From the UHGV virus genome UHGV-1461890: a stretch of 41,432 nucleotides of DNA; one strand, 5' to 3'. This document shows, piece by piece, positions 40,268 through 41,014 of the stretch. A model generated the notes under the pieces. It worked only from the letters and a program-made list of their open reading frames with translations, was not told the DNA's origin and made no database searches. The position numbers were made by a program, and so were the translations under genes. The stretch's first letter is position 1. Every line of letters begins with the position of its first letter. Source of the DNA: a virus.

Positions 40268-41014
40268 ATGGCAAACAAAAGAATGTTTTCAATGGACATA
40301 GCAGATAGTGATGCTTTTTTAGAGATGCCGCTATCTTCTCAGGCTTTATATTTTCATCTTTCGATGAGAGCAGATGACGATGGGTTTGTAAAGAATCCAA
40401 AGAAAACACAAAGGATAATAGGCGCTTCCGATGATGATTTAAAGATACTTATAGCGAAGAGATTTATTCTTCCTTTTGATTCAGGAATCGTAGTTATAAA
40501 GCATTGGAAAATCAATAATACCATTCGTTCTGACCGATACAAACCAACCACATATATTGAAGAAAAATCAATGCTGGTTGTTAAAGAAAACGGTGCCTAT
40601 ACGGAGGCTAAAAATCTTGGTATACCAAGTGGTATACCAAATGACAACCAAGTGGGTGACAGTTGGTTACCACAGTATAGTATAGGTAAGAGTAGTATAG
40701 ATTTAGGTAAGTATAGTTGTAGTTGTAGTAGCGAAAATGACAACCACAACAACAGCGACTTTCCCACAAAAAATGATGAGTTTTCCACCGACTTATCCAC
40801 CAATAGCCAATTTGAACTGCAAAACGGAAGTCTCGGAAGAGGTGTTGTTCTTCTCACACCTGAGCAGGATGAGGCTCTACTAGATAAGTTAGGCTTCGAT
40901 GGATACAACCACTATGTATCTAAACTTGCTGACTTCATTATTGAGAAGGAAGCAAAGGTAGGTAACCATTATGCAACCATACTCAAGTGGGCAAGAGAGG
41001 ATTCTAAACTTTAA
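40268..41014 (+). CDS. replisome organiser / replication initiation protein (putative)
   Basis: Track ORF starts at GTG 40265; ATG 40268 follows AAAGGAGG SD. N-terminal LSSQALYFHLSMRADDDGF recalls phage replisome-organiser N-domains; central low-complexity linker overlies iteron-like repeats. Confidence 0.55.
   Translation: MANKRMFSMDIADSDAFLEMPLSSQALYFHLSMRADDDGFVKNPKKTQRIIGASDDDLKILIAKRFILPFDSGIVVIKHWKINNTIRSDRYKPTTYIEEKSMLVVKENGAYTEAKNLGIPSGIPNDNQVGDSWLPQYSIGKSSIDLGKYSCSCSSENDNHNNSDFPTKNDEFSTDLSTNSQFELQNGSLGRGVVLLTPEQDEALLDKLGFDGYNHYVSKLADFIIEKEAKVGNHYATILKWAREDSKL
40617..40735. repeat. iteron-like repeat cluster inside replication gene (candidate origin)
   Basis: Palindrome TTGGTATACCAA at 40617-40628, GGTATACCAA again at 40631-40640, GGTTACC variant, then repeated TAGGTAAG / GTATAG / TTGTAG units through 40735. 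Confidence 0.4.

Follow-up and report, generated by a model that had tools for sequence, protein, structure and literature searches.

Are the short repeats in the middle of this phage's replication gene the site at which replication of its genome begins, or are they only the reflection in DNA of a repetitive stretch of protein? The window, by which is meant the whole 41,432-nucleotide stretch of phage DNA analysed here, carries these repeats inside the gene of a putative replisome organiser, and an earlier note had singled out 40617-40735 as iteron-like repeats and palindromes forming a candidate origin. Every element listed there is present in the sequence read from 40600 to 40760, and the proposal of an origin within the replication gene gains support from the homology of the encoded protein to Rep2009 and r1t ORF11, from the arrangement of the boxes, which recurs at the corresponding position in Tuc2009, r1t, Javan14 and about 140 others, and from codon tests. 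On these comparisons the segment 40617-40746 is very probably the replication origin of the phage, lying in the linker DNA of its own initiator, a member of the Rep2009/r1t-ORF11 family. The principle of an origin inside the initiator gene is itself long established and has already been shown by experiment in Tuc2009.

The gene for the replication initiator, or replisome organiser, occupies 40268-41014 on the plus strand and encodes 248 amino acids; AGGAGG lies 7 nt 5' of the ATG at 40268 and makes a good ribosome-binding site. An AlphaFold2 model built on an alignment of 37 homologues gives a confident N-domain at residues 7-113 and a helical C-domain at residues 198-247. The N-terminal domain (residues 1-113, 40268-40606, plus strand) is predicted to be a winged-helix DNA-binding domain, and the C-terminal helical domain (residues 192-248, 40841-41011, plus strand; helices 198-227 and 234-247 with pLDDT 80-85) is presumed to serve in protein interaction and host recruitment. 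Between them the cis elements are carried by the DNA that codes for residues 116-191 (40613-40840, plus strand), a linker predicted to be disordered, with pLDDT below 50 at residues 116-178 and 180-191 and no secondary structure; since the repeats fall in this coding DNA, they encode a disordered linker.

The initiator is matched by PHROG families 8489 and 5708 (E 1e-72 and 6e-69), whose label is 'DnaD-like helicase loader', and by more than 8000 database proteins, all in a family that stands outside Pfam and NCBIfam models: the protein has no match in Pfam (E up to 10), in NCBIfam or in a sequence-profile search of the PDB. Pfam at the same threshold likewise gave no match to the SPP1 G38P-type N-domain; PF09681 (Phage_rep_org_N) is the model that we take to be that of the replisome-organiser N-domain of G38P-type proteins. 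The N-domain is present in 128 annotated phage records, Tuc2009 among them, and its family is known from no fewer than 128 annotated phages and satellites, their hosts being Streptococcus, Lactococcus, Lactobacillus, Enterococcus and Clostridia.

The gene ends a replication and recombination module made up of a YqaJ exonuclease, RecT, a winged-HTH protein, an SSB and a truncated C5 methyltransferase. This last gene, a C5 cytosine methyltransferase at 39486-40199, 5' of the initiator gene, encodes only 237 amino acids; of the 324 positions of the Pfam profile it matches 2-167 and no others, which leaves roughly the second half missing. Relatives have a gene of 523-648 amino acids at this position, and the window's copy has probably been truncated to a remnant. 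The ORFs that flank the initiator gene yielded no recognisable helicase or loader, in searches that took in a minority of the small ORFs at 1-3400.

The 5' part of the repeats, here called the A zone, consists of boxes with dyad symmetry. The palindromes described in the earlier note are in place, TTGGTATACCAA at 40617-40628 and the second, TGGTATACCAA, at 40630-40640, and GGTATACC occurs at just these two sites in the entire window on either strand; the GGTTACC variant is equally present, at 40665-40671. Tandem Repeats Finder reports an array of period 12 at 40618-40655. Read as units, five boxes span 40618-40675. Box 1, TGGTATACCAAG (40618-40629), contains the 10-bp palindrome TGGTATACCA and is followed by box 2, TGGTATACCAAA (40630-40641), and by box 3, the 11-nt TGACAACCAAG (40642-40652), whose core GACAACC at 40643-40649 is that of Tuc2009 and Javan14 and was absent from the earlier note. 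A degenerate fourth unit, TGGGTGACAGT (40653-40663), is found also in Javan14 and in close relatives, and box 5, TGGTTACCACAG (40664-40675), has the GGTTACC core. A further copy of the A box, AAATGACAACCA at 40735-40746, likewise missing from the earlier note, lies 3' of the B zone described below and is an exact repeat of 40639-40650. The five boxes are phased at 12, 12, 11, 11 and 12 nt, a regularity that the earlier account had missed, and the autocorrelation of the zone peaks at lags 11-12 and 22-23. Comparison with relatives leaves the boxes standing as iteron-like elements and takes exact palindromy away as a conserved feature, many relatives having the only partly symmetric GGCAACC; what is conserved is the phasing of 11-12 nt, about one helical turn.

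Several smaller observations attach to these boxes. The palindromic pair (40616-40641), taken on the minus strand, forms an 11-bp hairpin followed by ATTTTT. A scan scored it as an intrinsic terminator directed into the gene; this may be a coincidence, or the feature may stop antisense transcription or make a cruciform possible. A role for RNA structure was considered and rejected, as this hairpin of two palindromic boxes is the sole significant fold and relatives with non-palindromic boxes cannot form it; Rfam finds nothing in 40000-41432. In the gap 5' of the initiator's ribosome-binding site, TTAGATAAACCACTT at 40219-40233 is 80% complementary to box 2 (AAGTGGTATACCAAA), a resemblance that might be due to chance or might mark an operator-like half copy. 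No second origin-like cluster of boxes, comparable to oriR of SPP1, occurs elsewhere in the window.

Following the boxes is the B zone (40673-40731, plus strand), a run of pentamer-periodic TAGnw repeats and a candidate DNA-unwinding element. The repeats named in the earlier note are found here, with TAGGTAAG at 40683-40690 and 40704-40711 and four copies of GTATAG within 40675-40716, and Tandem Repeats Finder reports an array of period 21 at 40674-40717; a run of 58 nt without any C (40674-40731) and the composition of this half from TAGnw pentamers had escaped the note. Their standing as repeats of the origin is upheld, though as further iterons they are not, for they behave as a separate, pentamer-periodic and easily melted zone. 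Judged on statistics within the window alone, the evidence for the repeats is modest and only slightly beyond chance. TAGGTAAG occurs three times against 1.3 expected, a count reached in 18 of 100 shuffles, the third copy, at 35903 inside an unrelated HTH gene, fitting chance; C-free runs of at least 58 nt appear in 52 of 500 shuffles of the window.

An easily melted segment next to the iterons, which is the classical criterion for an iteron origin, is found at 40680-40720, the least stable 40-bp duplex in the gene by nearest-neighbour calculation (z = +2.1) and as weak as AT-rich intergenic DNA, because TA steps are in threefold excess (0.25 vs 0.08 in the window). The B zone is not a strongly AT-rich block, its GC content being 0.32-0.33 vs 0.385 overall, and in this it departs from a classical unwinding element; AT content in the vicinity is highest in the intergenic stretch 41000-41080. 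GC skew in the window follows the direction of transcription and carries no information on the origin.

The case for function comes from relatives. Eighty IMG/VR loci, 80 loci from GTDB genomes and several annotated phages were collected, and layout and codons were counted in 143 non-identical loci, some of them with unrelated C-terminal domains. All relatives share one layout in the linker DNA, an A zone followed by a B zone, and this conservation places the repeat pattern far beyond chance. Their A zones contain two to five short dyad-symmetric boxes, GGTATACC, GrCAACC (GGCAACC or GACAACC), GGAACC or TGTATACA, each followed by about CAAnT and spaced at 11-12 nt. Their B zones read CAG(G/T)(T/A)TAGGTTAGGTAAGGATAGGTTAGGTAAG..., are free of C and rich in TA steps, and are periodic at 5 nt (autocorrelation 0.49, 0.48, 0.55 and 0.47 at lags 5, 10, 15 and 20), with 'AG' fixed every 5 nt and a 15-nt distance between G(G/A)TAAG units in 134 cases. 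C-free runs have a median length of 54 nt in the B zone vs 18 nt in the N-domain, and in 78 of 141 loci (about 19 expected) the weakest 40-bp duplex of the gene coincides with the B zone, the A zone being slightly more stable than average. The exact 22-nt B-zone pattern was found at 120 loci in IMG/VR, and in all 112 that could be evaluated it is preceded, within one ORF, by the family N-domain, so that the B zone is a property of this initiator family and no generic element. Many relatives have in common with the window only the N-domain and the linker, after which unrelated C-domains follow. A blastn search with the whole gene matches Streptococcus phage Javan14 in the repeat zone only (84% over 75 nt), the two proteins being 43% identical.

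Among these relatives are phages in which the function of the region has been described. By blastp the initiator is 44% identical to Rep2009 of Tuc2009 over 184 amino acids (E 1e-46) and 38% identical to r1t ORF11 over 133 amino acids (E 3e-23). Rep2009 and ORF13 of TP901-1 bind repeat-rich regions inside their own genes that serve as origin, these repeat regions supplied in trans give phage-encoded resistance, and r1t ORF11 is described as a homologue of Rep2009 (PMC8965321); the placing of ori2009 within the rep gene of Tuc2009 goes back to McGrath et al. 1999, as summarised in PMC8965321. The CDS note for orf16 (Rep2009) of Lactococcus phage Tuc2009 in GenBank and RefSeq likewise reads 'contains origin of replication'. 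A full-text literature search with the box sequences returned no relevant paper.

The linker of Tuc2009 reads GGCAACCAAGT-GTCAACCATTC-CGCAACCAAAT-GACAACCAAAT, then CAGGATAGGATAGGAGAGGTTAGGTTAGGTAAGGATAGTATAGGTAAGGATAGTATAG, then another CGCAACCAAAT. It follows the plan of the window: four xxCAACC boxes at 11 nt, then CAGGATAGG...TAGGTAAGGATAGTATAGGTAAG, then one more box, the second CGCAACCAAAT standing at the relative place of the extra box at 40735-40746. Both phages, further, have an SSB gene and a gene for ssDNA annealing (recombination) upstream. In contrast to those of Tuc2009, the boxes of the window are mostly the palindromic GGTATACC at 12-nt spacing, the two TAGGTAAG units are 21 nt apart rather than 15, the C-terminal domains are unrelated, and the host is a Clostridia-type gut bacterium (the best genomic relatives being Eubacteriales and Clostridia MAGs) rather than Lactococcus. 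In r1t, ORF11 (Pro11, a putative replisome organiser) has four GGAACC boxes at 11 nt and then three TTAGATAAGAATAGA units; its sequences GGAACC and GATAAG differ from the GGTATACC and GGTAAG of the window, and a DnaC-like loader gene lies next door, whereas none is found near the initiator gene of the window. Zuniga et al. 2002 reportedly found that Pro11, through its N-terminal part, footprints about 47 bp on one face of the helix, a stretch that takes in four 6-bp repeats.

More distant comparisons are to functional analogues only, and this holds for both O and ori-lambda of phage lambda and G38P and oriL of SPP1. Ori-lambda lies in the middle of the initiator gene O, in DNA that codes for the linker between a DNA-binding N-domain and a recruiting C-domain, and its iterons, which have dyad symmetry, are followed by a strand-asymmetric, easily melted stretch. 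The window shares the linker position, the dyad-symmetric iterons and the adjoining melt stretch. It differs in that its iterons are of 11-12 bp rather than 19 bp, its melt zone consists of pentamer repeats with a moderate GC content rather than an AT-rich block, no sequence or family relationship to lambda O was detected, and the window is without a partner gene like lambda P. In SPP1, direct repeats and an unwinding element in gene 38 are bound by the gene's own product, and theta replication starts there (PMC6316719); SPP1 has in addition its second origin, oriR, and a loader and helicase of its own, whereas the window has no second box cluster and neither enzyme was found near the initiator gene. 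ORF13 of TP901-1 was considered as a relative and rejected, there being no blastp match to the window protein; it carries its own repeats in linker DNA (TTTTCCAGATGTGGC, twice, at about 2040-2080 of locus L083) without the A/B architecture. This shows that the solution of placing an origin in the linker recurs with unrelated N-domains.

The class of box tracks N-domain residues 85-88, in the segment W-x-x-x-N-85-86-87-88-D-R. N-Y-x-R goes with GGTATACC boxes, N-(F/L/T)-x-R-K with G(G/A)CAACC (FK in 16/16, LK in 14/14), N-Y-I-Q with TGTATACA, and N-(T/A)-x-K, in r1t as elsewhere, with GGAACC. Mutual information with box class peaks at residues 95, 10, 87, 85, 8 and 88, a statistic that ignores phylogeny; the covariation, so limited, is suggestive of direct recognition of the boxes by these residues and fits it.

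One objection to an origin is that the repeats are a mere coding image of a low-complexity linker peptide (GIPSGIPN..., GKSSIDLGK...) with no function as DNA. Disordered linkers do commonly hold short tandem repeats, the linker motif QYSIGK..LGK is partly conserved, and the weak within-window statistics lean the same way; a linker predicted to be disordered is, on the other hand, unlikely to be under strong peptide constraint, and the codons speak against the objection directly. Gly-Lys is written GGTAAG in 184 of 208 instances in the linker vs 13 of 121 elsewhere in the same genes (143 loci; Fisher p 2e-47), and individual linker residues are nearly or wholly confined to one codon: Gly to GGT (118/120), Lys to AAG (119/120), Ile to ATA (92/92), Leu to TTA (75/75) and Ser to AGT (66/66). 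Clustering of the N-domains at below 60% identity left only three representatives and no statistical power, and codon diversity at invariant N-domain residues was used instead as the control for shared ancestry. The N-domain motif DDDGF has an invariant Gly, and across these sequences it is written GGA in 51, GGT in 46, GGC in 29 and GGG in 20 (1.9 bits), and the codons of invariant Pro and Leu residues are equally scrambled. Synonymous positions are thus frozen in the linker and free at invariant residues of the N-domain, which shows that selection acts on the DNA. The repeat lengths agree. Autocorrelation of the A zone is maximal at lag 11 (0.386) and lag 12 (0.318), with echoes at 22-23 nt, the zone lacks the 3-nt codon signal (0.235 vs 0.319 in the N-domain), and the 11-nt units of GGCAACC arrays are read in all three frames, as in ELATNWQPTGNQLAT, so that the DNA repeats and the peptide does not. 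The repeats are, on these tests, under selection as DNA and not merely as coding sequence, and a purely peptide origin of the pattern is very hard to credit.

Two other readings grant the DNA a function and deny that it is primarily an origin, and each of them is improbable. The linker DNA might be mainly a recombination sequence at a module boundary, joining one N-domain to varied C-domains; the N-domain and linker do precede many unrelated C-domains, similarity breaks just after the B zone, and Javan14 matches at the DNA level nowhere else in the gene. Conservation extends, however, to lineages so far apart that synonymous sites of the N-domain are saturated, and hence points to long-term purifying selection in the linker rather than recent exchange; recombination, moreover, needs neither helical phasing at 11 nt nor periodicity at 5 nt. 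Box type, further, tracks N-domain residues, and homologues are reported to bind the repeats and to use them as origin. The roles of module boundary and origin are, in any case, not mutually exclusive. About equally doubtful is the proposal that the boxes are an autoregulatory operator or roadblock that limits transcription or translation of the initiator while replication starts elsewhere. Sites inside a gene necessarily meet RNA polymerase, and boxes 1 and 2, being palindromic, fold into a strong hairpin (RNA fold z = -2.6) and make the terminator-like site on the minus strand; such a hairpin arises only with palindromic boxes, though, and the direct GGCAACC repeats of relatives cannot fold in this manner. 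The genome, further, has no second box cluster to act as the alternative origin, the adjacent and conserved zone of low stability is a feature of origins and not of operators, and the origin of a homologue is annotated inside the gene. Either function, boundary or operator, is possible as a secondary role.

With an origin as the preferred reading, a sequence of events may be proposed in which the winged-helix N-domain would bind the five A boxes, successive sites lying roughly on one face of the helix since they are 11-12 bp apart. The resulting nucleoprotein array would destabilise the adjoining B zone, a strand-asymmetric stretch rich in TA steps and the weakest duplex of the gene, and lead to its melting. 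The C-terminal helical domain would then recruit the helicase-loading machinery of the host, a step proposed since the vicinity of the initiator gene has no recognised gene for either a helicase or a loader and looks like an initiator-only module. The neighbouring SSB and YqaJ/RecT recombinase genes would then support replication.

A bolder extension of this scheme, which we hold as tentative and rather unlikely in its full form, is a two-part code extended over a disordered linker, in which a small number of N-domain residues (about 8-10, 85-88 and 95) would determine the class of A box and the B zone would be an active element for initiator binding. On that proposal the (TAGGw)n zone, constant throughout the family and found only with this N-domain, may be a specific single-strand or second-mode binding element instead of a passive melt region, with a logic comparable to that of the DnaA-trios of bacterial oriC. 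If true, origin specificity would be predictable and could be re-engineered.

Even the more conservative reading has practical implications. It locates the probable origin and names the initiator, which would be of use in annotation and in the design of shuttle or decoy (Per-type) constructs, and it would help to predict which phages and satellites cross-react at the origin. The layout also gives a simple sequence signature by which thousands of unannotated Bacillota phages could be searched for their origins. More broadly, the A zone is a clear case in which a DNA signal overrides codon periodicity inside a gene, helical phasing at 11 nt replacing the 3-nt signal, a loss that is tolerated because the encoded peptide is disordered.

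Sequences reminiscent of DnaA boxes lie 3' of the origin boxes on the plus strand, where three such 9-mers, TTTCCCACA at 40760, TTTTCCACC at 40781 and TTATCCACC at 40793 (span 40760-40801), encode FPT...FSTDLST. Five close relatives retain the tandem pair and its rare Ser codon TCC, and in one of them a perfect TTATCCACA is present; the distant relative at locus L027 keeps the peptide as FSTNLST and has TCA codons, so that either the DNA or the peptide may be what selection maintains. The cluster is absent family-wide, and the count of TTATCCACA-like boxes over the whole window equals chance expectation.

A few features of the remaining genome deserve mention in their own right. The ends of the window (1-47 and 41375-41432) share a TGGCTC/CTGGCGATGGCT repeat within a Gly-Ser-Gly-rich stretch of the ORF starting at 41342, and this common repeat suggests that the genome is probably complete and circularly permuted, the contig having been opened within the repeat during assembly. 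Two minus-strand ORFs (498 and 191 amino acids) at 32111-34430 coincide with the window's only reversal of GC skew; they are probably a lysogeny module, and the phage would then be temperate. A single ORF of 3782 amino acids at 15917-27265, after the structural genes, is unusually long for a 41-kb phage, and its product is presumably a tail, tape-measure or fibre protein. Finally, a 21-nt tandem repeat, GATTTAACTTCTTTACAAAAC, is present in 2.7 copies at 1871-1927 within the ORF at 1559-2137, where it encodes coiled-coil-like DLTSLQN heptads.
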